From assembly GCA_031282835.1 (NCBI GenBank), contig JAITCU010000022.1:1587-65586 (forward strand): DNA of 64,000 nt, given 5' to 3'. This DNA comes from Puniceicoccales bacterium (GTDB lineage Bacteria; Verrucomicrobiota; Verrucomicrobiia; Opitutales; JAIRLM01). Below are positions 1,469-62,546 of the stretch, piece by piece. The position numbers and the translations under genes are program-made. Numbering within the stretch: position 1 is the stretch's first letter; every line of letters begins with the position of its first letter. The notes under the pieces are model-generated. The model was not told where the DNA came from, made no database searches, and saw only the letters and a list, made by a program, of their open reading frames with translations.

Positions 1469-1587
1469 AGCGCTTGGAAACAGATGACAAGAATTTTTCC
1501 GTTTTTACAAGGCTTTTGGGGCAGGTAATTTTCATCTGGCACTATTCCCTTGACGAAACATGGCGTTTTTCAGGTGATTCCCACGCT

Positions 1588-1675
1588 GGAGAGGTGACAG
1601 AGTGGCCGATCGTGCGGCACTGGAAATGCCGTGTACCGCAAGGTACCATGGGTTCGAATCCCATCCTCTCCGCCA
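1588..1675 (+). tRNA. tRNA-Ser (anticodon GGA)
   Basis: GGAGAGGTGACAGAGTGG...GGGTTCGAATCCCATCCTCTCCGCCA. It has a 7-bp acceptor stem, anticodon stem CGGCA/TGCCG with loop CTGGAAA, a long variable arm, a canonical T-loop and an encoded CCA. Confidence 0.9.
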
Positions 1676-1680
1676 TGGGA

Positions 1681-2832
1681 TTATCGATAAAGATTAGTCA
1701 CGCCTTCGCCAAGGGTATCATCGACAGAAATTTGACCATTCAGGAGCAACTGACGTGCGGAACCGGCAAAGGTTGCCATACGCTGGTCATTGATGTGGTC
1801 CCGCAGCCGTTCCGCTTGCATATTACCCAGGGTCAGGGGTGCCCATTCGTACTGTGCTGTCCGACCATCATAACCCGTTTGGTGACACTTTTCGCATCCG
1901 ACGGACTGAAAAACGCGGGCAGTTTTATTCAATGCGAGCCGCTTGGCCATCGCCGGGGACAGACGACATTCGCGCCGACAGTGAGGGCATAGGCAGCGGA
2001 CAAGCCGTTGGGCCAGAATTCCGCGTAAGGTGATCCCGATGAGGTATTTTGAAATTTCAAGATTTTCCAGTCGATCGACCGCGCCAGCAACACCATCGGC
2101 ATGGAGCGTGCTAAAGACAAAATGTCCCGTCAGTGCCGCTTGGATGGCGATGGCCGCCGTTTCTGGATCCCGGATTTCACCGATAAACAGTACATTGGGT
2201 GCCTGGCGGAGAATGGCTCGCAGGGCACTGGCAAAGGAAAGGCCCTGATTAGCCGCGACGTTGACCTGGCAAATCCCCTTTGCCGCGTATTCCACCGGGT
2301 CTTCCACGGTGATGATCTTTCGCGAGCCATCATTCAACATTTGCAGCAAAGTATAAATGGTGGTTGATTTGCCGCATCCCGTCGGGCCGACAACTAGAAA
2401 TAATCCGCTGCGTTCCCCAATAGTTCGGTGAATAGACTGGCAAATGGCATCATCTGCGAATCCCAAGTTGCATAAATTTGGTTGTGTTCCAAGCAGCTTC
2501 AAAATGCGCAAAACCGCCCCTTCGCCATACAAAAACGGGATGATTGAGATGCGGATATCATAGGTGGTCTGGTCGTCAAACTGAAATAGCCATTTGCCTT
2601 CCATTGGTCGCCGATGCTCATCCAATGGGAGTAGGGAAACAATTTTCAACCGAGATAGCATAGGTGGAAGCAGTTCCTGGGCAAATGTGCGTATAACAAC
2701 CAACTTACCGTCCACGCGAAAACGTACGCGCCAAGTTTTTTCCTGGGGCTCCAGATGCACATCCGACGCCCCCCGCTCGATCGCGGCTCGCACCAAGTCG
2801 CTGAGTAGCTGGGCAATCGGAGAGTCGTCCAC
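1681..2832 (-). CDS. GspE/PilB-family type II/IV secretion ATPase, short form lacking the N1 domain
   Basis: ORF 1681..2931 has Walker A GPTGCGKSTT, the GASDVHLEP motif and a C-terminal tetracysteine (CPHC...CEKC). I set the start at GTG 2832 (VDDSPIAQLL), 14 nt after the plsY stop. The maximal ORF start at 2931 would overlap plsY by 86 nt. Confidence 0.75.
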   Translation of the reverse strand: MDDSPIAQLLSDLVRAAIERGASDVHLEPQEKTWRVRFRVDGKLVVIRTFAQELLPPMLSRLKIVSLLPLDEHRRPMEGKWLFQFDDQTTYDIRISIIPFLYGEGAVLRILKLLGTQPNLCNLGFADDAICQSIHRTIGERSGLFLVVGPTGCGKSTTIYTLLQMLNDGSRKIITVEDPVEYAAKGICQVNVAANQGLSFASALRAILRQAPNVLFIGEIRDPETAAIAIQAALTGHFVFSTLHADGVAGAVDRLENLEISKYLIGITLRGILAQRLVRCLCPHCRRECRLSPAMAKRLALNKTARVFQSVGCEKCHQTGYDGRTAQYEWAPLTLGNMQAERLRDHINDQRMATFAGSARQLLLNGQISVDDTLGEGVTNLYR

Positions 2833-2845
2833 AAATCTGTGCTGA

Positions 2846-3487
2846 TTATGGACGATTTTCCGGGCGAGTAAAGCGGTATTCGGTCCCTGCCAGCAAACGG
2901 CGGATATTCGGGATATGACGTACGATGGCAAAAGTGCTCAAAAGAAGGACGGCCATATTTGTATATTGGTCATAACCAAAGAGATAAGAGCAGAGTGGGA
3001 GTATGGCACAGAAGCAAACGGAGGCCAAAGAGACATAACGGGTAACCCAAAATACGACACTCCAAGTCAGCAACCCGACGGACAAAACATTGGCCATGGC
3101 TGCCCCCATTCCTCCTATGAGCACGGCAATTCCTTTACCACCGCGAAATTTAATAAAAGCGGAAAAATTATGCCCCAGAAATGCGCCTATAAGTCCAGCA
3201 ATCACAGCTAATTGGGGATTTTCTGGAGCTAAATAAATTGCCCCACGGACCGCTAGGAAACCCTTCAGCACATCGCAAAGGAAGACAATCCTCCCCGCCC
3301 TTCTTCCCACAACGCGCCGCACATTGGTTGCACCTGGATTACAACTCCCACTAGCCAATATGTCCGCGCCGTAGCATCTGGAAATTATGACCGCAGATGG
3401 GATGGCTCCAAGGAAGTAGCCAAGTAAAATGTCTAACGAAAAATTCCAGTAATCCATTTCCTCCATAATCTGCCGCGAATGCCGCAA
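2846..3487 (-). CDS. plsY: Glycerol-3-phosphate acyltransferase PlsY
   Basis: GSCNPGATNVRRVVGRRAG matches the PlsY GSGNxGATN signature, and the protein is polytopic. The true start may be ATG 3466 or 3457. Confidence 0.85.
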   Translation of the reverse strand: MRHSRQIMEEMDYWNFSLDILLGYFLGAIPSAVIISRCYGADILASGSCNPGATNVRRVVGRRAGRIVFLCDVLKGFLAVRGAIYLAPENPQLAVIAGLIGAFLGHNFSAFIKFRGGKGIAVLIGGMGAAMANVLSVGLLTWSVVFWVTRYVSLASVCFCAILPLCSYLFGYDQYTNMAVLLLSTFAIVRHIPNIRRLLAGTEYRFTRPENRP

Positions 3488-3511
3488 CGATCAACCACAA
3501 ATGGACGGGCC

Positions 3512-4378
3512 CTAAGCCAACGGCTGTTGTTTTGGTTGTTGCGGAAGGCTTACGGTATGCTCAATTCGTGACGCAACAAAGAGGAGTATGGCCCCGATGA
3601 GAATCAATCCGATTGTGATGCAAAGGAGCGTGATGAGAAGCGGCGGACAGGCGAAGGTGAGGACTCCGGCAGCCACAGACGCACTAATAATCTGTGCAAC
3701 CAGTGCACTGCCAATGGCGCCAGAAGCAGTGAAAAAAAAGGCAGAAAATTTTTCTAGAAATCTCTGAAGAATAGGTTTAAAGGTCTCATTTCCTAATTTA
3801 ATTTTTCCCATGGGGGTGTAGATTTCAAAATCCTTTGCCGTATATCCTTCTTTGCGCATAAATTTTAAGAGTGGTTTAGCATGTTCTCCGCTGGCAATTG
3901 CCCCGTAAAAGATTCCACTTACGGGAAATGTTATGGCATCAATTTGAATGGAATTTTCATTACCGTTCAATGCTGTTTGCAATTCATCCATGGTAAGATC
4001 GCGCATCATTCCATCTCTACAGGTAAGAAAGCGCGTTCGCGCAAAATCAGAGAGCGACATTTTTTTTGCGATTTCATCTGGGATGTTGAATACGTTAGTG
4101 AATATGTGCTGTAAATCAGCGCAAGCTACTGCATTCTTGTCGGCCACGGAAGATGGATCAATCTTAAACACCCGTGCATCATTTCCTTTTAGCCGTTCAG
4201 CAGCATCAATTCTTGCATTATAAATGTTAATTTCTGTGTCGCTTTTTATGAAATAAAGAAGTGTCGTTTCGCTTATGTACACCCCTGCCGATGCCTCTTT
4301 CCGATTTTCGTTAATTTTGGCTAAAGTAACTTGAGGAATTATAACCTGCGTGTGGTGCGACACCGGCTGAAAACTCAT
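3512..4378 (-). CDS. Hypothetical membrane protein with a soluble N-terminal domain and a C-terminal bilobed hydrophobic domain
   Basis: 288-aa ORF. Two adjacent hydrophobic segments (FFFTASGAIGSALVAQIISASVAAGVLTFA / CPPLLITLLCITIGLILIGAILLFVA) are followed by a Q/P-rich tail. I recognise no family. The gene is AT-richer than its neighbours. Confidence 0.6.
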   Translation of the reverse strand: MSFQPVSHHTQVIIPQVTLAKINENRKEASAGVYISETTLLYFIKSDTEINIYNARIDAAERLKGNDARVFKIDPSSVADKNAVACADLQHIFTNVFNIPDEIAKKMSLSDFARTRFLTCRDGMMRDLTMDELQTALNGNENSIQIDAITFPVSGIFYGAIASGEHAKPLLKFMRKEGYTAKDFEIYTPMGKIKLGNETFKPILQRFLEKFSAFFFTASGAIGSALVAQIISASVAAGVLTFACPPLLITLLCITIGLILIGAILLFVASRIEHTVSLPQQPKQQPLA

Positions 4379-4568
4379 ACTGGCGTTATTTTACGTTTTC
4401 ATGGCGCATGTTGCAAGATTTTTAAGCGTGTCTTGCGAAATTATGTTAGAGAGTGTCGTCAAATAAGTCCTTAACGCCCCAACCTTTGCAGCGTTAGCAG
4501 TGGAGTATGGCAGACAAAGGCTTACATCGGCATGATATTTTAGATGCGGCTTAGGAAAAATTAGAACC

Positions 4569-4669
4569 ATGCGAATTGCAAAACTCTGAATTATAAAACC
4601 AGTGGCCGTGGCTAGTTGTCCAGAATAGTATTCAGCAAACTAGCCATAAAGTCTCTGTACATAGCAATT
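4569..4669 (+). repeat. ~100-bp dispersed repeat module (R100), copy A
   Basis: ATGCGAATTGCAAAACTCTGAATTATAAAACCAGTGGCCGTGGCTAGTTGT...CTAGCCATAAAGTCTCTGTACATAGCAATT aligns at roughly 85% by eye with 8062-8162. More diverged copies are at 18944-19043 and 62050-61965. Confidence 0.8.
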
Positions 4670-4761
4670 TCCAGCTATTGCAAGGAAAATTCGCTTATTT
4701 TTTGGCAAAAAACTGGGCGGCCGCCGCAGTTACCACTTGCGGCTGTTCTGACCGTATTCAT

Positions 4762-6324: not shown

Positions 6325-7623
6325 ATGGCAATGGAAGATTTGGAATCACTCAAGGGGACCTCGAAGGTCCGCCGCGTGGCCTGGGGAGCGTGGATCTGTG
6401 CGGCGGTTTTTTATCTTTATGAGTACTTCGTCCGAGTAATCCCTAGCGCGATGGGAAATGACCTGCACGCAGCTTTTAACGCCAACGCGGCAACCATTGG
6501 TTTTGCTTGCGGGCTTTACTACATCGTCTACGGCCCCCTGCAGCTCATCGTTGGGTCATTCTATGACCGATTTGGCGCGCGTAGGCTTCTGATTGGCTCC
6601 ATCACCCTCGTCCTTTCTGGGTGCTTCTTGGCCGCATGTCCATTCCCTAATATTCGCCTTTTCGCCATGGGTCGCCTTCTGATGGGCGTCGGCTCGGCGT
6701 TTGCTTTCATTGGGACAATTTACGTTGCCACCGTTTGGTTTCCGTCCACGAAGCTGGCATTTCTTTCTGGATTGACCACGGCCCTTGGCATGTTGGGTGC
6801 CTTGCTGGCCCAGGCGCCCATTGCCCGCATGGTACAGCTTATCAATTGGCGTAACACCTGGCTCCTAGCTGGGCTTTTGGGTTTTGGATGCCTTTTCCTT
6901 ATTCTTCGGCGGCTGCCAACGACGCCGGAGTGGGAGATGCGCCGCCACGACACTTACTTTGATTCCAACAGGCACGCGCTTTCACAATTCATTGCTGGGT
7001 TTTTACTAGTTGCTAAAAACCCGCAGACTTGGATTATCGGCAGCATTGCCTGTGTGCTCTTCATGCCACTCGTCGTTTTTGCCGACTTTTGGGGAATTCA
7101 GTACATCGAACTGGTTGTCGGAGCAACCAAATCTCAGGCAGCGCTCGCCAACGGCATGCTTTACATGGGCTGGCTTCTGGGAAGCCCAGTCCTTGGGGCC
7201 CTATCCGACTACTTGAGCCATCGGCGGAATTTCCTTTCCTACAGTTGCCTATTTTCCACGCTGCTTTTGTTGATGTTGTTACTTCCCTCCCATCTGTCGC
7301 TTGTGGGTGCCGGTGTAATTCTTTTCTTGCTTGGCATCGCCTCGAGCCCTGAGGTCATTTGTTTCATTGCAAACGTGGAATTGAATCCGCCTTTCCTGAA
7401 GGCCACGTCTGTGGCCATGGTCAATACCATCGTCATGCTCTTCGGTGGGTTGATGCAGCCTCTTTGCGGGTTACTCATCGATTTTCGCTGTCGGACAATT
7501 CCTGTGGTATCTGGTGAGTACACGGCTGGGCACTATCGTTTCGCCCTGTTGATGCTACCCATTGCTACTTCCATAGGACTCATGCTTTCTTTTTTCATGA
7601 AAGAATCTACCGAGGACTTTTAA
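6325..7623 (+). CDS. MFS transporter
   Basis: About 12 predicted TM segments and the MFS loop motif GSFYDRFGARRLL. I moved the start to ATG 6325 (MAMEDLESLK) because the track start at 6103 overlaps the preceding gene. Confidence 0.8.
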   Translation: MAMEDLESLKGTSKVRRVAWGAWICAAVFYLYEYFVRVIPSAMGNDLHAAFNANAATIGFACGLYYIVYGPLQLIVGSFYDRFGARRLLIGSITLVLSGCFLAACPFPNIRLFAMGRLLMGVGSAFAFIGTIYVATVWFPSTKLAFLSGLTTALGMLGALLAQAPIARMVQLINWRNTWLLAGLLGFGCLFLILRRLPTTPEWEMRRHDTYFDSNRHALSQFIAGFLLVAKNPQTWIIGSIACVLFMPLVVFADFWGIQYIELVVGATKSQAALANGMLYMGWLLGSPVLGALSDYLSHRRNFLSYSCLFSTLLLLMLLLPSHLSLVGAGVILFLLGIASSPEVICFIANVELNPPFLKATSVAMVNTIVMLFGGLMQPLCGLLIDFRCRTIPVVSGEYTAGHYRFALLMLPIATSIGLMLSFFMKESTEDF

Positions 7624-7629
7624 GCGTCA

Positions 7630-8061
7630 GCCCCGTCTATCCTTCGAAGATGTGATGATGCACCCAGCAAAATCCTTGAAGAGGCGACTTCGTGGTTGCC
7701 GAATGTTTTTATAAACTGCGATGTTCGTAGAATCGATGATAAATTCGCCATGTTTCTCGATTGAATTTAGGAAGTTTTTATCAACGACCTTCCCTGGCAT
7801 GTGATAAAGCTTTGAAAACTAAGAGTAAGAGGGCGTTTGGGGAAATATGGCCGTAACCAAATTCCCATGGCGCCATTGTAAAAGCTTTTAAAGCGTTTTA
7901 AACCAGACAATTGAAAAAATGAATAGATTGTCCACACTTCAGATAAATGAAGTCCGCATGCTGGACCTGCATCATGGGAAAAATCCCAGCAATTCTTCTT
8001 GCGGGCACCATCCACCGCGATAAATAGACAATAGGTAAATGCGTGGAACACAAAGATGCCT
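7630..8061 (-). pseudogene. IS982-family transposase, N-terminal ~150 codons, truncated and frameshifted
   Basis: LSEVWTIYSFFQLSGLKRFKSFY and FPKRPLTLSF lie in ORF 7767..8051. After a stop/frameshift, GEFIIDSTNIAVYKNIRQPRSRLFKDFAG follows at 7640-7760. These match the IS982 motifs LSxSEIxTIxxxFHxSGxRxFKxFY and IDSTxLxVCxNxRI. Confidence 0.7.
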
Positions 8062-8162
8062 ATGCGAGTTGCAAAACTCTAAATTATAGAATCAATGGCC
8101 GTGGCTAGTTGTATAGAATGGCATTCCGCAAACTAACCATAAAGTCTCTATACATAGCAATT
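8062..8162 (+). repeat. R100 repeat module, copy B
   Basis: Aligns with 4569-4669. It is wedged between the two IS982 fragments. Confidence 0.8.
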
Positions 8163-8606
8163 GCCACCTTTTTCCCGAATTTGCCAAATGGGCCTATTCC
8201 TCCACCCGCTGCGTCTTCGGCTTCAAGCTTCACTTGGCGATCGATGAACGCGGAAAAATCGTCGTATTTCGCCTGCCGGACAGGCAGTAGGCACGACGTC
8301 AAGGAAGCGGAAAATTTGCTCCGAGGTTGCATCGGGACTGCGATTGGGGACAAAGGTTACTGCTCAAGCCAAGTTAGGGAACGCCTCGAACGAGCTGGGT
8401 TACGATTTGTTACACCCGCGCGCACGAACATGAAAAACAGGAACACGGAAGAGGAAAAAGGCCTTCTTCGGAAGAGAAATTTAGTGGAACGTGTCATCGG
8501 AAAATTAAAGCGATTTGTCGGAGACAATTTTTCACGCTTTCGCACCTGGGCCGCTGCCAAAGCGGTAATCGGGGTAGCTATGGTGGCCATAAACCTGGGT
8601 TTTTAG
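8162..8606 (+). pseudogene. IS982-family transposase, C-terminal ~150 codons, frameshifted
   Basis: One frame reads CHLFPEFAKWAYSSTRCVFGFKLHLAIDERGKIVVFRL up to a stop at 8288. The frame of track ORF 8109..8606 then reads GSRHDVKEAENLL..IGDKGYCS..LLRKRNLVERVIGKLKRF..FSRFRT. These correspond to the IS982 motifs GFKLHL, GNVDDR, DKGYIS and LRKRxxIE. Confidence 0.75.
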
Positions 8607-8624
8607 ACTTTTTCCATCGGGGTA

Positions 8625-8653
8625 TTGACATTGTTTGCGTATTGCTTCATAAT
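8625..8653 (+). promoter_or_regulatory. Sigma70-like promoter TTGACA-N17-CATAAT immediately outside the IS right end
   Basis: TTGACA at 8625-8630, a 17-nt spacer, CATAAT at 8648-8653. Prediction from sequence only. Confidence 0.4.
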
Positions 8654-9608
8654 GCGCCTCGTGGATAGTTCCAAGTCTGTCAATGTGGCCAAGGCTGAGG
8701 CGTTGGTACGTGCTGCTACGGGTGAAAGTGGTTCCCTGGGTCCCCGGGAAACACCTACGGGTATGCTCTGGCGGGTGTCGGCTGGAGACATCGCCAAAAA
8801 TGTCAGCCGGCTTACCCACGCACGGATTTGCTATCTTTCGGGAATGTGTTCAGCTTGGCAAGCTTTCCTTACACTGTTTGGATTTGGGCCAGAACCAATA
8901 GGCGATACATATGAGAAAATTTTATTCCTTCTTGGCGTAAGTGAAAATAACGTTCGTCTTTTGAGCGCCGAAAGTTTAACCTTTACAAAAATAGATAAGC
9001 CGACTGGTCAATTTGTCTTTTTAGATCAAAGAGGCCGCGAGGTGGTTGTGAGTAATTTAGACGAGCTTAACGGGTGTGTCAATCTCACGGTCTTAACAAT
9101 AAACACGGCCCCAATTAGAGAAATAGATTTATCAGGATTAATAATGTTGACGTGCTTAAACCTTGCATGTTGCGAGGGCCTCGAAAAAGTGGTGCTTCCG
9201 GGGGAACGCGGAATTCCCAACTACACGTTAGAACGGATAAATGTAAGCAGTACTGCGATAACAGAAGTAGATATTTCTAATCTTCCTGGGGTGCGACATT
9301 TTTTTGCAAATACTTGCCCAAATTTACACAAAATTAATGCCGGCCCTAAAAATGGTGCCGTGCAGAGTATTCAAGCCTGTGATAATCCAGCTCTTAGGGA
9401 GGTTAACATTCAATATTGCCAAAAGTGTACCGCCATTAATCTGCGTGATTGCGAACGACTTGAATGTGTGATACACCCAACGGAGTTTGATGGTGTTTCA
9501 ACTATTCATCTTCAGGGTTGTCCAGCGCTTTCCCCTGAGACGCGGGCCAGCCTGAGCAAAATTAGCACCGGAAAATACGTGCATATGGACGAGGGACTGC
9601 GAGAATAA
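8652..9608 (+). CDS. Leucine-rich repeat protein, cysteine-containing (RNI/F-box-like) LRR type
   Basis: About 7 repeats of 20-28 aa in the C-terminal half (CVNLTVLTINTAPIREIDLSG, LTCLNLACCEGLEKVVL, CPNLHKINAG, CDNPALREVNIQYC, CTAINLRDCERLECV, LQGCPALS). The start is uncertain: TTG 8625, ATG 8652 (overlaps the predicted -10) or ATG 8763. Confidence 0.7.
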   Translation: MRLVDSSKSVNVAKAEALVRAATGESGSLGPRETPTGMLWRVSAGDIAKNVSRLTHARICYLSGMCSAWQAFLTLFGFGPEPIGDTYEKILFLLGVSENNVRLLSAESLTFTKIDKPTGQFVFLDQRGREVVVSNLDELNGCVNLTVLTINTAPIREIDLSGLIMLTCLNLACCEGLEKVVLPGERGIPNYTLERINVSSTAITEVDISNLPGVRHFFANTCPNLHKINAGPKNGAVQSIQACDNPALREVNIQYCQKCTAINLRDCERLECVIHPTEFDGVSTIHLQGCPALSPETRASLSKISTGKYVHMDEGLRE

Positions 9609-9825
9609 GATCATCACGTATCCGGACGCGTCCACTGCCGCCAGCGGCAACTTGTCCGGTGGCGTTGCTTGCCCCCGATGCGTCGTGGCGTTGGAATTGC
9701 CACCTCGCCCGCTGGGCTGGAGCCTGAGCAGTTTGGAATTGACATTTCCAAATTGGATTATAGTAAGGAATCCAGAAACAACACCTAACCGGGGTTGTGG
9801 TGACAATTTGGGGATACGACGTACT

Positions 9826-10494
9826 ATGAAGCAATTAACGTTAACAGCCAGGAAGCGGGCGGAACTGGGACGGGGTAATGCGCGGCGCATACGAAAGGGC
9901 GGCGAGATCCCGGGGGTTATCTACGGCGAATCGGGGAGTCTGCCGTTGTCCTTTGGCACGAAGGAGTTGCGGTCGGCACTGCATCAAATGGCGGGGAGCG
10001 CGGCGTTGATTTCCCTGACCATTAACGGGGAAGATGGCGTCCGATCGGCCATATTGGTGGAGTCGCAAAAAAATCCGCTGACGGATGAAATTTTGCACGT
10101 GGATTTTCACGAAATTTCCATGAAGCGGAAAATGACGGCGCACATTCCCGTGCGCTTGGAGGGGATAGACGAATGCATCGGCGTTCGGGAGGAAAGTGGG
10201 GTTTTCGAATTTCATACCCACGAGATCACCGTCCGCTGCCTTCCGCAAAATTTACCCTCGGAATATGCGCTGGACGTGACCAACTTGCATGTGAAGCACG
10301 CAATCCACATCAAAGATTTGCAGCCCATCGAGGGCGTCGAATTTGTGGATGCGCTGGACCTGGTCATCGCCGCTTGCAGTGAGATGAAGGCCGCAAAAAA
10401 TTCCGCGGGGACGGGTGAGGCTGCTGAATCGGCTACGGCTGAACCCGCACCAGCTCCTGCCGGAGGCGGGAAAAAAGAATCCGATAAAAAATAG
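9826..10494 (+). CDS. rplY: 50S ribosomal protein L25/Ctc
   Basis: MKQLTLTARKRAELGRGNARRIRKGGEIPGVIYG..., followed by a C-terminal Ala/Pro/Glu-rich tail. It lies upstream of pth. Start refined to ATG 9826. Confidence 0.85.
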   Translation: MKQLTLTARKRAELGRGNARRIRKGGEIPGVIYGESGSLPLSFGTKELRSALHQMAGSAALISLTINGEDGVRSAILVESQKNPLTDEILHVDFHEISMKRKMTAHIPVRLEGIDECIGVREESGVFEFHTHEITVRCLPQNLPSEYALDVTNLHVKHAIHIKDLQPIEGVEFVDALDLVIAACSEMKAAKNSAGTGEAAESATAEPAPAPAGGGKKESDKK

Positions 10495-10580
10495 TCGGTC
10501 TTTCCATTGCCATGGTGCAGAAGTCTGCCTAAGGTGCCGCTAGCCGATTTGAGGCTTACTATGGACAGGTGGAGGGAAAT

Positions 10581-12482: not shown

Positions 12483-12543
12483 TTTGATGGAGCACCGCGT
12501 GTGGCGGGATTTTTTGAAGATTTTTGCGTTTTGCAAAAAACGA

Positions 12544-12574
12544 TTGACAAACACCTACTTCTTAGCAGTATAGT
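12544..12574 (+). promoter_or_regulatory. Predicted promoter of cassette copy 1 (TTGACA-N19-TATAGT)
   Basis: TTGACA at 12544-12549, TATAGT at 12569-12574, with an A/T tract upstream. The same layout occurs in all four cassette copies. Confidence 0.5.
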
Positions 12575-12616
12575 CTGCGAATTCTCGAGGATTTAATTTA
12601 AAGAAGAAGGCTTAAT

Positions 12617-12847
12617 ATGAAAAATACCACCGCATCCACGACAGATGTTTTTGATGATGATTTGGAACTGCAAACGTCCCTAGTCCCAGAACTGGCACCT
12701 AGCTTTAAACTGGAACCCCCATTTTTATGGAAATTTCCTGCGTTTTTAGGACGGGCCAGCCCGCTGCGAAAGACATTTAAAAATGTTGCTAATAAACAAA
12801 AAACTGCGCTAGCTCATCCGATCGGAGAATCTATGAAAACCAATTAA
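12617..12847 (+). CDS. Small conserved ORF of cassette copy 1 (76 aa); translation unproven
   Basis: MKNTTASTTDVFDDDLELQTSLVPELAPSFKLEPPFLWKFPAFLGRASPL... An SD-like GAAGAAGG lies upstream. Paralogous ORFs occur in the other copies. Confidence 0.4.
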   Translation: MKNTTASTTDVFDDDLELQTSLVPELAPSFKLEPPFLWKFPAFLGRASPLRKTFKNVANKQKTALAHPIGESMKTN

Positions 12848-12999
12848 CAAAGAATAGATGGTGAATTATTGCCTGGGCCAATGGGTCGAAGACAATAACA
12901 ACATTAAACCTTCTGACTTTGATTTACATCACAAAAATCTTTCAGCGAGCATTTTAATGTAATATCTATTTCAATATTAATGCCAGCCGGAGCAACCAT

Positions 13000-14586
13000 A
13001 TGCCAATGATAAATTTTACACTCCCAAAAAATTCGTATTTTAATAGTGGCCTACCGTCCAGGTGTCCTTCCACATGCCTTGGAAGGGCGTCGCTGCGGGG
13101 CAATGAATTTTTTTATTCCCCCAGGCGGGCAACCCAGTCTAGTTTTCTGAGTGTCGTGGCAAGGGAGGGAAAAAAATCCGAAAATTCCGCGGATTCTCTA
13201 AAGAAAAATGATCTGCGTTCCATGCCCTACTCCATGGAGGTGGAGCGGATGCTTTTGGGCTGCTGCGTCCTGGAGGGTGGTCAGGAGAGCCTGGCTTTGT
13301 GCATCGAAAACAGGATCACCGCGGACTCTTTTTACTATCCCTTTCATCGGGTTATATTTGAGGCTATCTCCGACATCCACCGGCGGGGGCAACCCCTGCT
13401 CGAGGGAACCCTTCTGGAGTGCCTGGAAGCAACAAATCGCATACAATTGGCCGGTGGCCGCTCCTATGTCCTCCAGGTCTGCGATTGCATTGATAACGCG
13501 CTCCACATACGCCATTTCATCGACCGCCTGCGGGATTACGAGCTACTCCGCCGGATCATCACCGTGGCCACAAAAATCGTGGAACAAGCCTATGGGGCGA
13601 TGATGAGCGTTGCCCAATTCGTTAGCGAGGCGGAGGAACAAATTTATTCCGTCAGCCAGGACACCATCCGCCAGTCCGCGACGCACATAAAGGAGTCCGT
13701 AAATCAAGCCATCCAAATGGCCCAAATGGCCTTCATGCACCGGGGCCAGATTAACGGCGTGTCCACCGGGTTTATCGACCTGGACCGGATGCTGTGCGGC
13801 CTCCATGGAGGCGAGGTGATTGTCCTCGCGGCTCGGCCATCCATGGGCAAAACAAGCATGGGGCTTAATTTTGCCGAGTCCGCCATCCTACCACCAGCGG
13901 ACAGGGACCGGGTACCCACGCTGTTCTTTAGCTTGGAAATGGGTTCCGATCAGCTGGCCATGCGGCTTATCTGCGGCCGCGCGGGAATCGACATGTCCGC
14001 TTTGCGTAACGGGTACACGCCCGCGGGACAGGAATCGCGGCTGCTAAGTGCGGCCAAGGAATTTTCCGATGCGCCCCTGTGGATCGATGAATCATCAAAT
14101 TTGACCATCCTCGAACTCCGTGCGCGTGCACGTCGTGCATGCAGTCAATACAAAATCGGGCTAATCATCATCGATTATTTGCAACTTGTCAGCGGCATGG
14201 ATAGTCGCACGCCCCGGGAACAGCAGGTTGCGGAAATTTCCCGAGGTGTTAAGGCCATGGCCAAGGAACTGAAAGTTCCCGTGGTCCTCCTGAGCCAACT
14301 GAATCGCGAATCGGAGAGGGATGGGCGACAGCCGCGGATTTCGGATCTGCGCGAATCCGGTTCCATCGAACAGGATGCGGATGTGGTCCTGCTCCTGGCT
14401 CGCCCCCGGGGGACTAGTGAGGAGGACGAGCGTTCCGCTGCCGAGGAGGACACGCCCGCGGCGGGTTTTTCCCTAGTAGAACGAGAACTTATAATCGCCA
14501 AACAGCGCAATGGGCCCGTCGGAGTAGTACACTTACTATTTGACAGACGTTTGACAAAATTTAGAAACCAAGCCACACGGGAATAG
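13000..14586 (+). CDS. dnaB: Replicative DNA helicase DnaB
   Basis: PYSMEVERMLLGCCVLEG (N-terminal motif), Walker A AARPSMGKTS, IIIDYLQL and QLNRESE. The maximal ORF is given. The conserved region starts at codon 76, so the real start is probably between GTG 13156 and ATG 13222. Confidence 0.9.
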   Translation: MPMINFTLPKNSYFNSGLPSRCPSTCLGRASLRGNEFFYSPRRATQSSFLSVVAREGKKSENSADSLKKNDLRSMPYSMEVERMLLGCCVLEGGQESLALCIENRITADSFYYPFHRVIFEAISDIHRRGQPLLEGTLLECLEATNRIQLAGGRSYVLQVCDCIDNALHIRHFIDRLRDYELLRRIITVATKIVEQAYGAMMSVAQFVSEAEEQIYSVSQDTIRQSATHIKESVNQAIQMAQMAFMHRGQINGVSTGFIDLDRMLCGLHGGEVIVLAARPSMGKTSMGLNFAESAILPPADRDRVPTLFFSLEMGSDQLAMRLICGRAGIDMSALRNGYTPAGQESRLLSAAKEFSDAPLWIDESSNLTILELRARARRACSQYKIGLIIIDYLQLVSGMDSRTPREQQVAEISRGVKAMAKELKVPVVLLSQLNRESERDGRQPRISDLRESGSIEQDADVVLLLARPRGTSEEDERSAAEEDTPAAGFSLVERELIIAKQRNGPVGVVHLLFDRRLTKFRNQATRE

Positions 14587-18645: not shown

Positions 18646-18707
18646 CTACCCCGATGGAAAAGGTCCCTCATAGTCAAGCCTATGAGGGACCTTTTCCATC
18701 GGGGTAG
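18646..18707. repeat. Perfect 62-bp palindrome made of two IS right-end terminal sequences (28-nt arms, 6-nt spacer)
   Basis: CTACCCCGATGGAAAAGGTCCCTCATAG-tcaagc-CTATGAGGGACCTTTTCCATCGGGGTAG. The outer 19 nt of each arm match the IS terminus at 8606-8624 at 18 of 19 positions. Confidence 0.9.
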
Positions 18708-18711
18708 ACTT

Positions 18712-18935
18712 TGCGTTTAGGCCGCGGTAATTACGGCCTTGCCCTGGCCACGAACTTTAATTTTTAAACTTTTTCAATGGATTGTGAGATTTTTCTGCAA
18801 AACCAGCTTGACTTGCTGGGCAAAAATCTTAAAAAGTTCCGTGAGATGTGTCTTACAAGTCCCGCATTCGGGAAAATTTTTGCTGTTTTTTGCCACCTGA
18901 TTGAGGGGTAAGGAGTGGCATTTGATCTTTGACAG
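18712..18935 (+). repeat. Promoter-less relic of the cassette 3' region (fifth copy)
   Basis: GTTTAGGCCGCGG, CTGCAAAACCAG, ATTCGGGAAAA..TTTTGCCACCT and TGGCATTTGATCTTTGACA parallel, in the same order, the region downstream of cassette copy 4 (62265-62068, minus strand). Confidence 0.5.
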
Positions 18936-18943
18936 AAATATTA

Positions 18944-19043
18944 ATGTGAATTGCATGCCATGGCGTGCAAAAGGCTTAGTAGTGACTAATTACGTGCAAT
19001 GGTATCGCACGAATTAGCCATAGAGGCTTTGCGTATAGCCATT
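18944..19043 (+). repeat. R100 repeat module, copy D (diverged)
   Basis: ATGTGAATTGCA...GGCTTAGTAGTGAC...AATGGTATCGCACGAATTAGCCATAGAGGCTTTGCGTATAGCCATT is colinear with copies A and B. Confidence 0.6.
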
Positions 19044-20122: not shown

Positions 20123-21307
20123 GTGAAAATTCACGAATTTCAAACCAAGGAGCTGTTGGCACGCCATGGGATTTCCGTGGATGCTGGCGTTGTCATTGGC
20201 TGCGGAGATGCCGCGGAAGCGCTTGTTTCGTCTTTGGGTTCCGTGGAAAATTATGTCATTAAAGCACAAATTCATAGCGGTGGCCGAGGGAAAGGCTACT
20301 TTGCCGACGGTTCGGGAAGTGGCGTGCAGTTGGCGCATTCGCGGGCGGAAGCGGTTGCGTTGGCCCGAAAGATGTTGGGTAACCGTCTGATAACCAAACA
20401 AACGGGACCCGCCGGTTGTTGTGTGCGCCTGGTTTCCGTGGGGCCCGGGACGGATTTTCATCGGGAAATTTATTTGGCCATTTTCATGGATCGTTCTGCG
20501 GGAATGCCAGTTATCATGGCCTCTTCCGCCGGTGGCGTTGAAATCGAGGAACGGCCGGGAAACGTCCTGCGTGAGTATGTTTGTCCGCTGGCGGGGCTGC
20601 AACCCTTCCAGTCTCGCAAACTTGTCTTTTCGCTGGGTTTTGAATCTGCGGCCACACGCGAGTCTTTCATGGCCATTCTCCACAATTTGTATCGCCTGTT
20701 CGACGAAAAAGACGCCTCGCTCATTGAGATTAACCCGCTGGTGGAAACGGCGGATGGACGCCTCCTGGCCATCGATGGGAAGGCCGCTTTTGACGACAAT
20801 GCGCTGTTCCGACATCCGGATATCCGCATATTGTGCGATCTGCAGGGAGAAGATCCCTTGGAAATTCAAGCATCGGTTCATGGCGTTAATTATGTGGCAT
20901 TGGATGGAAATATTGGTTGTCTGACTAATGGCGCGGGACTTGCCATGGCCACCATGGACCTGCTCCACGCCCATGGGTTGGAAGCGGCAAATTTTCTCGA
21001 CCTTGGGGATAATTCCGGGCCTGGGGCCGTGTCCGCGGCGGTGGAAATTTTACTCGGGGCCGATGACCTGCGCTGCCTACTTATCAATACCTTTGGTGGG
21101 GCTATGTGTGGGGATGTGGTGGCCCGGTGTGTTACAGATGTTTTTGCCGAGAAACACGTGAAGCTCCCCCTAGTGGTGCGGATGGAGGGTGCAAGGGCCG
21201 CGGAAGGGCTGGCACTGTTGCGCGCGGAAGATGACCTTGAACTTTTCGTGGCGGAAAATTTGCGGGATATTCCGCAGAAAATTAGGGAGGCACTGGGGGC
21301 ACAATGA
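20123..21307 (+). CDS. sucC: Succinyl-CoA synthetase beta subunit
   Basis: MKIHEFQTKELLARHGI...KAQIHSGGRGKG. GTG start. Confidence 0.92.
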   Translation: MKIHEFQTKELLARHGISVDAGVVIGCGDAAEALVSSLGSVENYVIKAQIHSGGRGKGYFADGSGSGVQLAHSRAEAVALARKMLGNRLITKQTGPAGCCVRLVSVGPGTDFHREIYLAIFMDRSAGMPVIMASSAGGVEIEERPGNVLREYVCPLAGLQPFQSRKLVFSLGFESAATRESFMAILHNLYRLFDEKDASLIEINPLVETADGRLLAIDGKAAFDDNALFRHPDIRILCDLQGEDPLEIQASVHGVNYVALDGNIGCLTNGAGLAMATMDLLHAHGLEAANFLDLGDNSGPGAVSAAVEILLGADDLRCLLINTFGGAMCGDVVARCVTDVFAEKHVKLPLVVRMEGARAAEGLALLRAEDDLELFVAENLRDIPQKIREALGAQ

Positions 21308-22197
21308 GCATTCTCATCGATGGACGCGCGCGTGTGCTTGTCCAAGGTATAACCGGTCGTGCGGCGGCGTTCCACCTGCCCCACTGTGAAGCCTATGGGA
21401 CAAAAATTGTTGCCGGCATACGCCCGGGCAAGGGGGGGCAGCTTTACGACGGCCGCATCCCCATTTACGACACCGTGGTTGAGGCAATTCGGAATCATTC
21501 CATCACTGCTTCGCTGATTTTGGTCCCCGCTCCCGCCGCCGCCGATTGCATATGGGAGGCCATTGACGGAGAAGTCCCGCTCATCGTGTGCGTTACTGAG
21601 GGAATTCCCGTGCGGGACATGGCGCGGATTAGGGCGCGGCTGCGCGACTCCAGCTCCGTTCTTGTTGGTGCCAACTGTCCAGGCATCATCACCCCGGGAG
21701 AAGTAAAATTGGGGATCATGCCCAGCTACATTCACCGCCCCGGGTCCGTCGGCGTTGTTTCCCGTTCCGGAACACTTACCTTTGAAACCGTTTGGCAACT
21801 CACCCAGCGCGGTATCGGCCAGTCTACCTGTGTCGGCATTGGGGGAGATCCCATCCATGGGCTTTCCCTGGTGGACGTGGTTCGCATGTTTAATGACGAC
21901 ACCAAAACTACCGAAATTGTGCTTGTTGGCGAAATCGGTGGTGAAGAGGAGGAAGAGGCGGCGGAATTCATCAAAAGACACGTTAAAAAGCCCGTTGCTG
22001 CATATGTCGCTGGTGTGACCGCGCCGGCCGATCGGCGCATGGGGCATGCGGGGGCGATTATTTCGGGGGCGCGGAGCGGAGCCGGTTACAAAATCAAAGC
22101 CCTGGAGGCGGCGGGAGTTGCCGTGGCCCGGGACATTTCGCAGCTTGGTGACGTTTTTTGTGAAGTTTCGCATATGATTAGATCCAGCAAGCATTAG
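21304..22197 (+). CDS. sucD: Succinyl-CoA synthetase alpha subunit
   Basis: RVLVQGITGRAAAFH..GIRPGKGG..SRSGTLTFE..GIGGDP. It overlaps sucC by 4 nt. Confidence 0.92.
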   Translation: MSILIDGRARVLVQGITGRAAAFHLPHCEAYGTKIVAGIRPGKGGQLYDGRIPIYDTVVEAIRNHSITASLILVPAPAAADCIWEAIDGEVPLIVCVTEGIPVRDMARIRARLRDSSSVLVGANCPGIITPGEVKLGIMPSYIHRPGSVGVVSRSGTLTFETVWQLTQRGIGQSTCVGIGGDPIHGLSLVDVVRMFNDDTKTTEIVLVGEIGGEEEEEAAEFIKRHVKKPVAAYVAGVTAPADRRMGHAGAIISGARSGAGYKIKALEAAGVAVARDISQLGDVFCEVSHMIRSSKH

Positions 22198-22561
22198 TAT
22201 CAAAGTGGTGATGTCCAAAATTACCCATAAAAAGGTCTTTCGAGAACGATATTTTAGTTGGAAGATTCAGCGTCGTTGTTGCTTCTGGCCCATTTATAAA
22301 GGCAATAATTTGCTGTTGGTTTTTCGTTTGGCTCCCACGGTTTTTCCGATCGGATGTGCTAGTTTGTTTTTTTATTTGAGGAGATATTTCCCAGATGGTT
22401 TTCGCAGTTGGCAGCGGGCTAGCTCGTCCTAAAGACGCAAAAAATTTCCATAAAAATGGAAGCTTCAGTTTTAAGCCAGGTGTCAGTCCTGGGACTTGGA
22501 ACGTTTGCAATTCCAAATCACCATCAAAAATATCTGTCATGGGTGTGGTGGCATTTTTCAT
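22178..22561 (-). CDS. Small ORF of cassette copy 2 (only the first ~55 codons are conserved; the stop is displaced, giving 127 aa)
   Basis: MKNATTPMTDIFDGDLELQTFQVPGLTPGLKLKLPFLWKFFASLGRASPLP... AAAGGAGAA lies 8 nt upstream of the ATG. The tail runs 20 nt into the sucD 3' end on the opposite strand. Confidence 0.35.
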   Translation of the reverse strand: MKNATTPMTDIFDGDLELQTFQVPGLTPGLKLKLPFLWKFFASLGRASPLPTAKTIWEISPQIKKQTSTSDRKNRGSQTKNQQQIIAFINGPEATTTLNLPTKISFSKDLFMGNFGHHHFDTNACWI

Positions 22562-22625
22562 ATTGAATTTTCTCCTTTGAACTCGAGTTCACGGACCATA
22601 TTGCTAGAAAATAGGTGTTTGTCAA
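22255..22625 (-). repeat. Dispersed promoter/small-ORF cassette, copy 2 (subtype C1/C2)
   Basis: Colinear with 12544-12910, including the 3' module (..CTAGC.CATCCGATCGGA.., ATTATTGCC..GGGCCA). Confidence 0.85.
22595..22625 (-). promoter_or_regulatory. Predicted promoter of cassette copy 2 (TTGACA-N19-TATGGT)
   Basis: TTGACA at 22625-22620 and TATGGT at 22600-22595 on the minus strand, with an A7 tract upstream. Confidence 0.5.
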
Positions 22626-23037
22626 TTTTTTTGCAGTTTCTGGTAAATTTTCGGTAAATTTCGGAGGGGGAAGTCGCGGCGAAGACTCGCAAGTCGTTCG
22701 AGGAAGCGATAGATGTCTCGCAGAAGTAGATGCTGCCAAATTGGGGGAAAAATTGAGCAGGCTCCGCCGCGAAGCGTTTTTCTGCGGGAAGGCCGTATGA
22801 AATCCGTTTTTTATGTTTACAAATCCAGCAATAGCGACCACCTCATTTGCCCAAACGATTTCCAATTTGGCCAAAAGCATTCGAAATTTGGCAACTTCTA
22901 GCCCACATTAATCCCGAAAAATTTCTTGCCCGTTCTAATTTGATCATGTTGGGTATGGGCGATTTGTTGTCGCCCACTGATTTTTCGCAACGCTTTTATA
23001 CTGGATTGTCAGCGGGCGGATTTCTGCAAGACCTCTA

Positions 23038-54755: not shown

Positions 54756-55997
<1,242 letters not shown>

Positions 55998-56125
55998 GAT
56001 GTAATTGAGTTTGTGAAAGATTTATCATTAGGCGGGTAAAACGTATTTGCCGAAATAATGATTCTCCTTTTGTTAATTTGTTTCCATGGATTTTTCAATC
56101 GGGTGAACTTGCCTGTTTTTTTTGT

Positions 56126-56320
56126 TCAAGTGGATATTTCCCCAATGGCTTTTGCATCTGGCAGCGGGCTGGCCCGTTCTAAAAACGCAGGAAATTTTCC
56201 CAGAAACGAGGTTTCCTGTTTGAGGCCAGGTGGCAGTCCTAGGACCGGGAACGCTTGCAGTTCCCAGTCACCATCAAAAATATTTAGCGCGAATGCGGCG
56301 GTATCGGTTGTACTTTTCAT
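56126..56320 (-). CDS. Small ORF of cassette copy 3 (64 aa); translation unproven
   Basis: MKSTTDTAAFALNIFDGDWELQAFPVLGLPPGLKQETSFLGKFPAFLERASPLPDAKAIGEIST. AAAGGAGAA lies 8 nt upstream of the ATG. Confidence 0.4.
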   Translation of the reverse strand: MKSTTDTAAFALNIFDGDWELQAFPVLGLPPGLKQETSFLGKFPAFLERASPLPDAKAIGEIST

Positions 56321-56353
56321 ATTGAATCTTCTCCTTTGAACTCGAATTCAAAG

Positions 56354-56384
56354 GCTATACTGCTTGAAGGCAGGCGTTTGTCAA
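56354..56384 (-). promoter_or_regulatory. Predicted promoter of cassette copy 3 (TTGACA-N19-TATAGC)
   Basis: TTGACA at 56384-56379 and TATAGC at 56359-56354 on the minus strand, with a T7 tract upstream. Confidence 0.5.
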
Positions 56385-56588
56385 TCACTTTGTAAAAAAA
56401 CATTCCAAATGCAACCGTATGTCGTTCCGATACCCGCCAAATGCTGCAGCGCGCGCGTACTGGCACAAAAGCCAGCCCGTACGGATTATACGGAGCAACG
56501 GACCTGTGAAGTCGAAAATCAACCAAACCGCCTGAACTGTAGATCTTCATACGAACAAAACACTGAAAGTCAAACTCAAATTGCCCGT

Positions 56589-62050: not shown

Positions 62051-62258
62051 GTTAAATTTTTCATTTTTGTCAAAGATCAAATGCCATTTTTTGCCGATTG
62101 ATTTGGATGGTGGAAAGTGGCAAAACCATCCCGAAATCGTAATTTATAAGATGTATCTCGTTGGATTTTTAGGGCGAACTAGCTAGTTCATTCTTTTTAT
62201 TTATTGATTAATGATATTCTTTAAATGGTTTTTGCAGCTGGCAGCGGGCTGGCCCGTC

Positions 62259-62399
62259 CTAAACATGTGGGAAATTCTCGTGGAAACGAGAGTTCCCGTT
62301 TAAGGCAGGTGTCAGTCCTAGGATTGGGAACGTTTGCGGGTCCCGATCGTTATCAAAAATATCTATCGCGAATGCGGCGGTAATAGTGGTGCTTTTCAT
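62259..62399 (-). pseudogene. Frameshifted small ORF of cassette copy 4 (46 codons)
   Basis: MKSTTITAAFAIDIFDNDRDPQTFPILGLTPALNGNSRFHENFPHV*. A 1-nt deletion relative to copy 3 (CTCAAAC versus TTAAAC) shifts the frame, and the stop falls just before the conserved block. Confidence 0.4.
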
Positions 62400-62432
62400 A
62401 TTGAATCTTCTCCTCTGAACTCGAATTCGCAG

Positions 62433-62463
62433 ACTATACTGCTGCGGGGAGGGAATTTGTCAA
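62433..62463 (-). promoter_or_regulatory. Predicted promoter of cassette copy 4 (TTGACA-N19-TATAGT)
   Basis: TTGACA at 62463-62458 and TATAGT at 62438-62433 on the minus strand, with a T7 tract upstream. Confidence 0.5.
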
Positions 62464-62546
62464 CACCATTTGTGAAAAAAATGCCAAAATTTGGCGAATA
62501 CCTTCGGAGAACCTTGTTCTAAGCGGCGATCCGGCATACCAGCTCT

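Follow-up and report, generated by a model that had tools for sequence, protein, structure and literature searches.

A dispersed, promoter-carrying repeat unit of a Puniceicoccales bacterium whose conserved core may act as RNA

Small units that recur in bacterial genomes are of several kinds. The Escherichia coli LDR ldr/rdl, hok/sok and ibs/sib loci are repeats of about 500 bp with their own promoter, a structured mRNA and an embedded short open reading frame (ORF), and the paralogous small RNAs (sRNAs) Qrr, LhrC and csRNAs, like the dual-function SgrS and RNAIII, have their own promoters, conserved stems and in some cases a short translated ORF; comparable features are seen or predicted in the unit described here. 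Putative mobile promoters (PMPs) are recognised by an identity of at least 80% over at least 50 nt upstream of non-paralogous genes, within a range of -150 to -50 from the start codon (PMC3575422). The present unit was analysed in a stretch of 64,000 nt (hereafter the window) from a metagenome-assembled genome (MAG) of a Puniceicoccales bacterium (GCA_031282835.1, contig JAITCU010000022.1, positions 1,587 to 65,586 of the forward strand), which harbours four copies, C1 to C4. It is read here, tentatively, as a lineage-specific, multicopy and self-promoted structured RNA unit, which may engage ribosomes through its Shine-Dalgarno (SD) sequence and AUG, has spread as DNA and is now largely resident.

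The original prediction, made from the letters of the window, had described four intergenic loci sharing a promoter, a palindrome, an SD and a small ORF. Direct reading of the loci found all four as described, and a nucleotide profile (nhmmer) built from them recovered the same four loci, at E-values of 1e-92 to 1e-106, and no others in the window. The predicted extents proved too short, since alignment of the copies with their flanks gives a unit of ~540-570 nt. Its 5' end, ahead of the -35 element, comprises ~50 nt with a hairpin followed by T-rich and A/T-rich stretches. The predicted layout then holds at every locus: an A/T-rich tract, TTGACA, a 19-nt spacer, TATAGT, TATGGT or TATAGC, the palindrome GAAYTCGAGTTC (split in C1 by a 9-nt insertion), a purine-rich SD and, 7-8 nt further 3', an ATG. 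The small ORFs have the predicted sequences and measure 76, 127, 64 and 46 aa, and the two predicted length differences, an in-frame indel of 9 nt and a deletion of 1 nt in copy 4, are both real. Between the AUG and a conserved core of ~155 nt lies a variable C/A-rich stretch of ~30 nt; the core runs to ...GCGAAAGCCATT, and a tail of ~270 nt then ends near TAATGTTCACCGGATTTAACCATAAG. The window has six matches to TTGACA-N13-21-TATRGY where 0.25 would be expected; four of them are the copies themselves.

Additional DNA copies were taken from contigs of the same organism (Logan SRR14710905; L020, L021 and L022) and of a relative in Joint Genome Institute (JGI) metagenome 3300042612 (three copies on L019/L024, and L023); in all, ~120 kb of the two genomes was read. 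TTGACA is invariant in all ten copies whose 5' part was recovered, and three or four copies (L022, L023, L019b, perhaps L019a) carry an extra 5' extension of ~100 nt.

Constraint is distributed unevenly along the unit. The core diverges from the consensus by 9-16% and has few indels, and the tail by 19-38% with 3-6 indels per copy. A neutral yardstick is given by the fourfold sites of rplI, dnaB and bamA, which are 0.64-0.68 identical between the window organism and the JGI relative, with a synonymous divergence (dS) of 0.7-0.9. Tail identity is 0.50-0.62 among paralogous copies and 0.66 in the orthologous pair (0.66-0.71 as a range); because paralogue tails are more diverged than orthologue tails, most copies appear to predate the split of the two lineages. 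Meanwhile the core is 0.72-0.84 identical between non-orthologous copies, cross-genome pairs included. The best-kept blocks are TTGACA, AATATGAAA, CACCTGGCTTCAAAC and the 35-nt AACGGGCCAGCCCGCTGCCAGCTGCGAAAGCCATT, the last being perfect even in the decayed copy L024c; TTGACA and the AUG context, too, hardly vary in copies that have otherwise decayed. Blocks 3 and 4 of the core, used as genome-wide motifs, were found nowhere outside the copies.

On the sense strand, RNAalifold proposes a 5' hairpin, a long-range helix P1 in which GAUAUUUUUGAUGG pairs with CCAUUURRRAAAUAUC, a helix of block 3 with block 4, a hairpin H2 and a small hairpin. Together with a further hairpin, H1, the model comprises 41 pairs in 9 helices. 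Paired cells amount to 90.9% against 87.6±0.7 in shuffled alignments (reached in 0/500), the covariation score is 0.303 against 0.233 in the shuffles (0/500), and two-sided changes occur in 13 pairs where 7.5 are expected (6/500 shuffles); when the partners are slid by 1-3 columns, pairing is at most 50.6%. The 5' palindrome (helix 1) is 90% paired with changes on both sides in 3/4 pairs, its palindromy being kept while its sequence varies (GAAYTCGAGTTC, GAGTTCGAATTC, GATTCGAATC, GAGTACTC). Among paired cells there are 53 G·U against 17 A·C, which favours the sense strand. Of the three options that the original prediction had left open, the compensatory and G·U pairing thus supports an RNA, and a small protein loses ground for want of a coding signature.

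Two details of the model bear on how the unit has been annotated. Five copies have C-G at pair 170-181 of H2 and five have U-A, and in 41 peptides the same switch appears as (Ser,Arg) in 17, (Pro,Trp) in 14 and a mixed form in 5. This coupling ranks third overall and is the top non-adjacent pair, the two higher ones being neighbouring C-terminal columns; it illustrates cleanly that compensatory changes in an RNA can mimic correlated amino acid changes. Similarly, the 59-aa and 64-aa forms of the ORF differ by TAA versus TGG/GGG, an A/G switch opposite the U run of P1 (U-A to U·G), so a dimorphism of stop and read-through can come from A/G wobble in an RNA helix.

Several observations weigh against reading the core as RNA. 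The model was built from the very alignment of ten related DNA copies on which it was scored, and relatedness of this kind can inflate the shuffle statistics given above. Single-sequence folding z-scores are weak (+0.7 to -2.8), and the RNAalifold energy is lower on the antisense strand (-28.9 versus -17.2 on the sense), although the covariation term is larger on the sense. No intrinsic terminator was recognised within the unit, sequence inspection included. Identity of the core across genomes, ~0.70-0.74, is only modestly above neutral, and the orthologous pair C1/L024c, at 0.68-0.71 versus the neutral 0.64-0.68 and with a promoter identity of 0.55, diverges at about the neutral rate, hence single copies can decay. 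Finally, at least 52 codons are open in 31 of 38 annotated copies, a count biased by the ascertainment of these copies through annotated ORFs, against ~0.5 expected in a substitution-only simulation. Constraint on the RNA would likewise keep the frame open, by lowering the rates of substitutions and indels there; still, open frames together with a conserved SD and AUG leave room for selection on translation.

If the structured RNA reading is nevertheless followed, each copy would be a self-contained transcription unit, the conserved part of which would work as RNA and not as protein. Transcription would be driven by the sigma-70-like promoter TTGACA-19-TATRGY, and the transcript would start with a short 5' stem-loop followed by the exposed purine-rich SD and the invariant AUG. 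The ~30 nt of variable C/A-rich sequence would then precede a multi-helix domain of ~155 nt, in which P1 is predicted to enclose H1, the block 3:block 4 helix, H2 and the small hairpin, while the tail of ~270 nt would drift at a roughly neutral rate. The family probably multiplied as DNA, by whatever copying mechanism, before two sister lineages separated from their common ancestor, and most copies would now be old residents; spread at the DNA level is indicated because the promoter moves as part of the unit and because copies lie flush against or inside gene ends. A role of the RNA in trans, such as ribosome or protein binding, might be suspected from the conserved SD and AUG.

The most far-reaching form of this proposal, namely that the units are ~40-50 independently transcribed genes for an undescribed structured RNA of ~230-250 nt acting in trans in a genome-reduced, probably host-associated verrucomicrobium, is considered unlikely. 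Under it, the RNA may be ribosome-engaging, protein-sequestering or a scaffold-plus-variable-segment (guide-like) family, and the unit may represent, in bacteria, a counterpart of high-copy structured-RNA repeats that carry their promoters, instead of a conventional miniature inverted-repeat transposable element (MITE) or small gene. The ~30 nt after the AUG were tried as a guide against the neighbouring gene and rejected, the duplex energies being the same for a copy's own neighbours and for those of other copies.

The family is large in one lineage and was found in just one other. A word-indexed search retrieved at least 38 annotated members from the NCBI 'MAG: Puniceicoccales bacterium' (the ORF of C3 is LBB26_02755), with LBB26_ tags from 00040 to 04445, a range which implies a genome of only ~900 genes; contigs bearing such copies total at least 747 kb, hence ~1 copy per 20 kb. 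A peptide profile compared with 1.84 billion representative proteins gave ~30 small proteins, all matching at the N-terminus. Five further family proteins come exclusively from the JGI metagenome of the relative, and beyond the 38 of the MAG and these five no other credible match was found among the representative proteins. Matches of the peptide hidden Markov model to long proteins (P0021, P0024, P0027, P0032-36) were discarded as composition noise from cadherin-like and other tandem repeats. At the DNA level, a 24-base gapped pattern met by all four copies gave chance matches in the genome and metagenome contig collections, none with an SD-ATG or block 4 motif, the source MAG being evidently outside the species-representative genome set scanned; in the viral contig collection neither this pattern nor the block 4 25-mer gave anything, and BLAST of the unit against plasmids and phages revealed no similarity. 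In agreement with the earlier statement that no family could be named, the peptide has zero matches in Pfam, NCBIfam, PHROGs and PADLOC, Rfam 15 detects only three tRNAs in the whole window at the gathering threshold, and its permissive mode on C1 and L020/L021 yields a best match of E=0.61.

At the dnaB locus the JGI relative (DnaB 89% identical) carries the orthologous copy L024c at the site of C1. Three other close relatives have no unit at the loci examined: GCA_031268795.1 (L025; DnaB 89%) has no copy in 21 kb, its site upstream of dnaB being occupied by 2.2 kb of unrelated ORFan DNA, and there is no unit upstream of dnaB in relatives with DnaB identities of 91% and 75%. The rplI-dnaB spacer of L025 (7810-10000 of JAIRWT010000008.1) encodes three ORFs of 164, 249 and 169 aa without a Pfam match. 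Two Logan SRR14710905 contigs begin inside the unit (L001 1-115 and L021 1-270), which indicates that the repeat fragments assemblies of this lineage.

Such a distribution also suits a non-autonomous, selfish mobile element without any host function, either MITE-like or derived from an insertion sequence (IS) by internal deletion, which is a credible if rather less probable explanation. The promoter, SD and ORF start would then be relics of the first gene of the parent, and the hairpins and blocks cis-signals for a transposase supplied in trans. This would account for ~40 dispersed intergenic copies in both orientations, some of them 5'- or 3'-truncated, for the assemblies L001 and L021 that begin inside the unit, for copies lying flush against or inside gene ends, for patchy presence among relatives with DnaB 75-91% identical and for the near-neutral drift of the orthologous pair. 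In addition, synteny breaks at L019b, which precedes the L25 gene, the orthologous site of the window being without a copy, and the two longest copies have ends resembling terminal inverted repeats (TIRs), 17-18 nt in L022 (ATGGGCAAA-TCCGTGGA versus ATGGTCAAACTCAGTGGA, p=0.004) and 16 nt at 81% in L023. The left arm, however, sits in the ~100-nt 5' extension that most copies lack, and TIRs are absent or insignificant elsewhere (L019a p=0.19, C2 p=0.88). The tentative end sequences are TATGGKYAAATCCGKKG and its inverted partner, CACCGGATTTAACCATA. A target-site duplication, which the original prediction had proposed to look for, did not emerge, as no direct repeat was seen at the junctions of L022, L023, C1 and C2, and no transposase, integrase or reverse transcriptase is encoded near any copy among the called neighbour genes in the ~120 kb of the two genomes. 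Moreover, the best-conserved blocks are mid-unit and not terminal, the core, the -35 element and the AUG are conserved although most copies are older than the species split, and the bias of G·U over A·C indicates RNA instead of signals in double-stranded DNA or in single-stranded DNA of either strand. The earlier suggestion that the unit is mobile has indirect support from the insertion footprints at gene ends, the patchy presence and the truncated copies; neither a transposase nor a target-site duplication was found, and the TIRs are tentative. Candidates for a clean empty site that would give the boundaries were rejected: in L025 unrelated DNA takes the place of the spacer, L027 has undergone rearrangement, and a different gene lies upstream in L026.

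Less probable still is a family of translated, disordered and fast-evolving small proteins of ~60 aa, symbiont effector-like or similar to ribosomally synthesised and post-translationally modified peptides (RiPPs), with a strong promoter and ribosome-binding site of their own. An SD-like purine tract and the AUG are indeed kept in 11/11 copies (the SD itself varying between GGAG, GAGG and AAGGA), the ORF region has few indels, mainly in multiples of 3, the orthologues C1 and L024c share a common stop despite differing indels, and the count of long open frames given above points the same way. The original prediction had seen signs that protein-level selection is weak and had proposed an estimate of the ratio of non-synonymous to synonymous divergence (dN/dS); codon positions, fourfold sites and off-frame dN/dS all bear the weakness out. 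In the six intact MAG copies, variable columns by codon position 1/2/3 number 30/29/26, without a third-position excess, and by the Nei-Gojobori method dN/dS is 0.62 in the reading frame and 0.57 and 0.56 in the two shifted ones. Over ten copies, would-be fourfold third positions show a pairwise identity of 0.73, compared with 0.70 at position 1 and 0.73 at position 2. The GGACGGGCCAGCCCGCTGCC block is used in three different frames among the copies, and in the C-terminal half the subfamily of the relative and several MAG copies read FYENFPRFYNGPARCQ or TGQPAAS, not FLWEFPAFLGRASPLP, with the nucleotides conserved. The peptide consensus MKNTTDTAASTADIFDGDWELQMFPVPGLTPGFKLEPSFLWEFPAFLGRASPLPAAKAI is acidic and Pro-rich, without a hydrophobic span, signal peptide or transmembrane segment, and AlphaFold, given an alignment of 30 sequences, predicts no secondary structure (pLDDT 54, pTM 0.13). 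Profile libraries, as noted, do not recognise it.

Three related candidates were dismissed. A RiPP precursor family fails for a 'leader' without coding signature, the lack of Cys in the conserved part and of a Cys-rich core, and the absence of modification-enzyme genes from 11 copy neighbourhoods; in its favour, the N-terminal DIFDGDLELQ may bear a superficial resemblance to lanthipeptide FNLD-type leaders. The tail, in which ...LAHPIGESMETN and ...DYYFGKWVEDNND strings recur in some frames, does not behave as coding, its frames being inconsistent and periodicity (41/40/36) absent. Antisense ORFs are open in all copies, with a reverse-frame dN/dS of 0.42-0.82, no consistent frame and no coding signature. 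On the structured RNA reading the peptide sequence itself would not be selected, even though the frame of 59-64 codons, which would stay open largely because the RNA sequence is constrained, may be translated; the 38 'hypothetical proteins' of the MAG annotation are probably not proteins.

Table 1. Positions in the window of the four copies and of their recognisable parts. SD, Shine-Dalgarno sequence; H1, H2 and P1, predicted helices of the putative RNA core.
Copy	Feature	Position	Strand	Remark
C1	Full-length unit, 537 nt	12488..13024	+	full-length nhmmer profile, E=2.9e-142
C1	Promoter-like site	12544..12574	+	TTGACA 12544-12549, 19-nt spacer, TATAGT 12569-12574
C1	5' palindrome/stem-loop	12579..12590	+	GAATTC + CTCGAG, 9-nt insertion relative to other copies
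C1	Purine-rich SD AAAGAAGAAG and invariant AUG context AATATGAAA	12600..12619	+	ATG at 12617
C1	Open frame, 76 aa (LBB26_02485)	12617..12847	+	tail frame altered by 7-8-nt deletion near 3' part
C1	Conserved putative RNA core	12644..12787	+	P1 arms 12644-12656 / 12774-12787
C1	Parts of the core		+	H1 12661-12683, block 3 12696-12710, H2 12712-12738, block 4 12751-12777
C2	Full-length unit, 568 nt	22118..22685	-	between GHMP-kinase gene and 3' end of sucD (convergent)
C2	Promoter-like site	22595..22625	-	TTGACA 22620-22625, TATGGT 22595-22600
C2	Open frame, 127 aa (LBB26_02525)	22178..22561	-	reads through tail
C2	SD and palindrome		-	SD 22570-22578, palindrome 22579-22590
C2	Core	22394..22517	-	H1 22495-22517, block 3 22468-22482, H2 22440-22466, block 4 22394-22427
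C3	Unit, 465 nt	55977..56441	-	~100 nt missing at 3' end; fills NIF3-mutY spacer
C3	Promoter-like site to end of open frame	56126..56384	-	TTGACA 56379-56384, TATAGC 56354-56359, palindrome 56338-56349, SD 56328-56337
C3	Open frame, 64 aa (LBB26_02755)	56126-56320	-	H1 56245-56267, H2 56190-56216, block 4 56144-56177
C4	Unit, 387 nt	62143..62529	-	~190 nt missing at 3' end; divergent spacer between GT2 glycosyltransferase gene and acetyl-CoA hydrolase/transferase gene
C4	Promoter-like site to block 4	62224..62463	-	TTGACA 62458-62463, TATAGT 62433-62438, palindrome 62417-62428, SD 62407-62416
C4	Frameshifted open frame, 46 aa (LBB26_02785)	62259-62399	-	1-nt deletion in block 3
C4	Parts of the core		-	H1 62324-62346, H2 62270-62296, block 4 62224-62257

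As regards the neighbouring genes, it had been noted correctly that three of the four window copies point into dnaB, mutY and the CoA-transferase gene. Across the ten independent copies, seven are co-oriented with the next gene (dnaB, mutY, CoA-transferase, rseP, tig-clpP, L25, rsmG-topA), a count which does not differ from chance (binomial p ~0.17), and three run into convergent genes (sucD, a symporter gene and a glycosyltransferase gene). C1 fills the rplI-dnaB spacer, starting 6 nt past the rplI stop codon, and the sequence just ahead of dnaB is also kept in L025 and L027, both of which are without the unit there. The L25 gene has its own TTGACA..TATAGT, conserved between the window, where no unit is present, L019, where one is, and L024. 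Between C4 and the acetyl-CoA hydrolase/transferase gene lies a copy of the motif GGCATTTGATCTTTGACA(A/G)AAAT, so this gene appears to have its own promoter. The motif is a different promoter-like repeat, present at 18914-18953 (-) and 62063-62103 (-) and in L020 at 2641-2695. Since dnaB, L25 and the CoA-transferase gene keep conserved upstream regions of their own, the unit is not simply their promoter, and the mobile promoter/leader option of the original prediction is weakened as far as the adjacent genes are concerned. A cassette transcribing the downstream gene, that is, promoter capture in a reduced genome, accords with the lack of an intrinsic terminator, with the seven co-oriented copies and with the established concept of putative mobile promoters (PMC3575422), but is very doubtful given that orientation is at chance level, that three copies face convergent genes, that the neighbours have upstream sequences or motifs of their own and that ~155 nt past the AUG, conserved with compensatory pairing, would be left unexplained.

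The insertions have left traces in the genes themselves. The last ~27 nt of C2, as reverse complement, supply the final 8 codons and stop of sucD (22171-22197); SucD (21304-22197, +) accordingly has ~8 extra C-terminal residues (SHMIRSSKH), and its homology to solved structures ends at residue 285 of 297. The start of the longest dnaB ORF (13000) falls inside C1, the DnaB of NCBI being 476 aa long with a start near 13156 (region 13000-13225), and the annotated mutY start at 55997 is overlapped by the end of C3 (55977-55997). The units give rise to spurious gene starts (dnaB, mutY), lengthen a genuine gene (sucD) and interrupt assemblies.

Other promoter-like sites and repeats were seen in the course of the analysis. 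TTGACA-N14-TATRGT, with a 14-nt spacer, occurs outside the repeat at 9739-9764 and 59584-59609, one of the two being the site ahead of the L25 gene that is conserved in the relative (L019/L024); both this spacing and the 19 nt of the repeat are odd for a sigma-70 promoter. A second repeat family is represented at 4569-4679 and 8062-8172 by 111 nt of 86% identity, with a promoter-like TTGCAAAACTCT..AATTATA at its start and a GGCTAGTT/AACTAGCC hairpin, and could be another small transcribed unit. At 18646-18707, a junction of plus and minus gene blocks, there is a perfect 28-bp inverted repeat (CTACCCCGATGGAAAAGGTCCCTCATAG/loop/complement) with the appearance of a bidirectional terminator; the TTTTCCATCGGGGTA arm is seen again at 8610-8625, in L020 at 1-38 and in L023 at 8343-8425. 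L023 itself contains repeats at 1-733, 7575-8199, 8655-9033 and 10169-10547 (tandem repeats of ~175 nt in an ORF of 1167 aa and two repeat pairs, one of 290 nt with 72% identity and one of 380 nt with 78%), which suggests that the genome of the JGI relative is generally repeat-rich.

What the unit means for its host depends on which explanation is correct. If it is a structured RNA, ~2% of a symbiont-like genome of the ~1-Mb class would consist of ~40 copies of one structured RNA unit equipped with a promoter, kept through a dS of ~0.7-0.9 between host lineages, although reductive genomes normally purge repeats. If it is a decaying MITE-like element, a new repeat family would be at hand, together with a marker for rearrangements in this lineage.

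Compared with described systems, the unit stands nearest to four groups. Correia elements, enterobacterial ERIC sequences and PMPs (Matus-Garcia/Nijveen/van Passel 2012; PMC3575422) likewise comprise many near-identical intergenic units upstream of unrelated genes; like the present unit they bear promoter-like hexamers and, as is predicted for it, are often transcribed and folded; they owe their mobilisation to a mechanism that is unknown or supplied in trans. C1 and C2 are 80% identical over 239 nt and C3 and C4 81% over 268 nt, upstream of unrelated genes, which is the degree of identity used for PMPs, but most copies lie outside the -150 to -50 range from the start codon. Furthermore, the unit measures ~540 nt against ~100-150 nt, shows no clear TIRs or TA duplication and no sequence similarity to these elements, and, unlike them, has its own SD and AUG, a multi-helix core of ~155 nt and neighbours with promoters of their own. 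In contrast to type I toxin-antitoxin repeats, its peptide is not hydrophobic or membrane-spanning and lacks conservation at the protein level, a conserved antisense promoter was not detected, and there are ~40 copies, not 2-6. With MITEs and non-autonomous IS it has in common a high copy number, intergenic location, truncated members, assembly breaks, restriction to a lineage and the absence of an encoded transposase; it differs from MITEs in that its TIRs are tentative (two copies), target-site duplications are missing, the signals are internal and most copies appear to predate the split of the host lineages. With respect to multicopy sRNA families, the copy number is ~10x higher, and no terminator, seed-target relation or Rfam match was found. 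The unit is best classed as a dispersed, presumably transcribed repeat that shares features with each of these known kinds and, on their defining tests, fits none of them.

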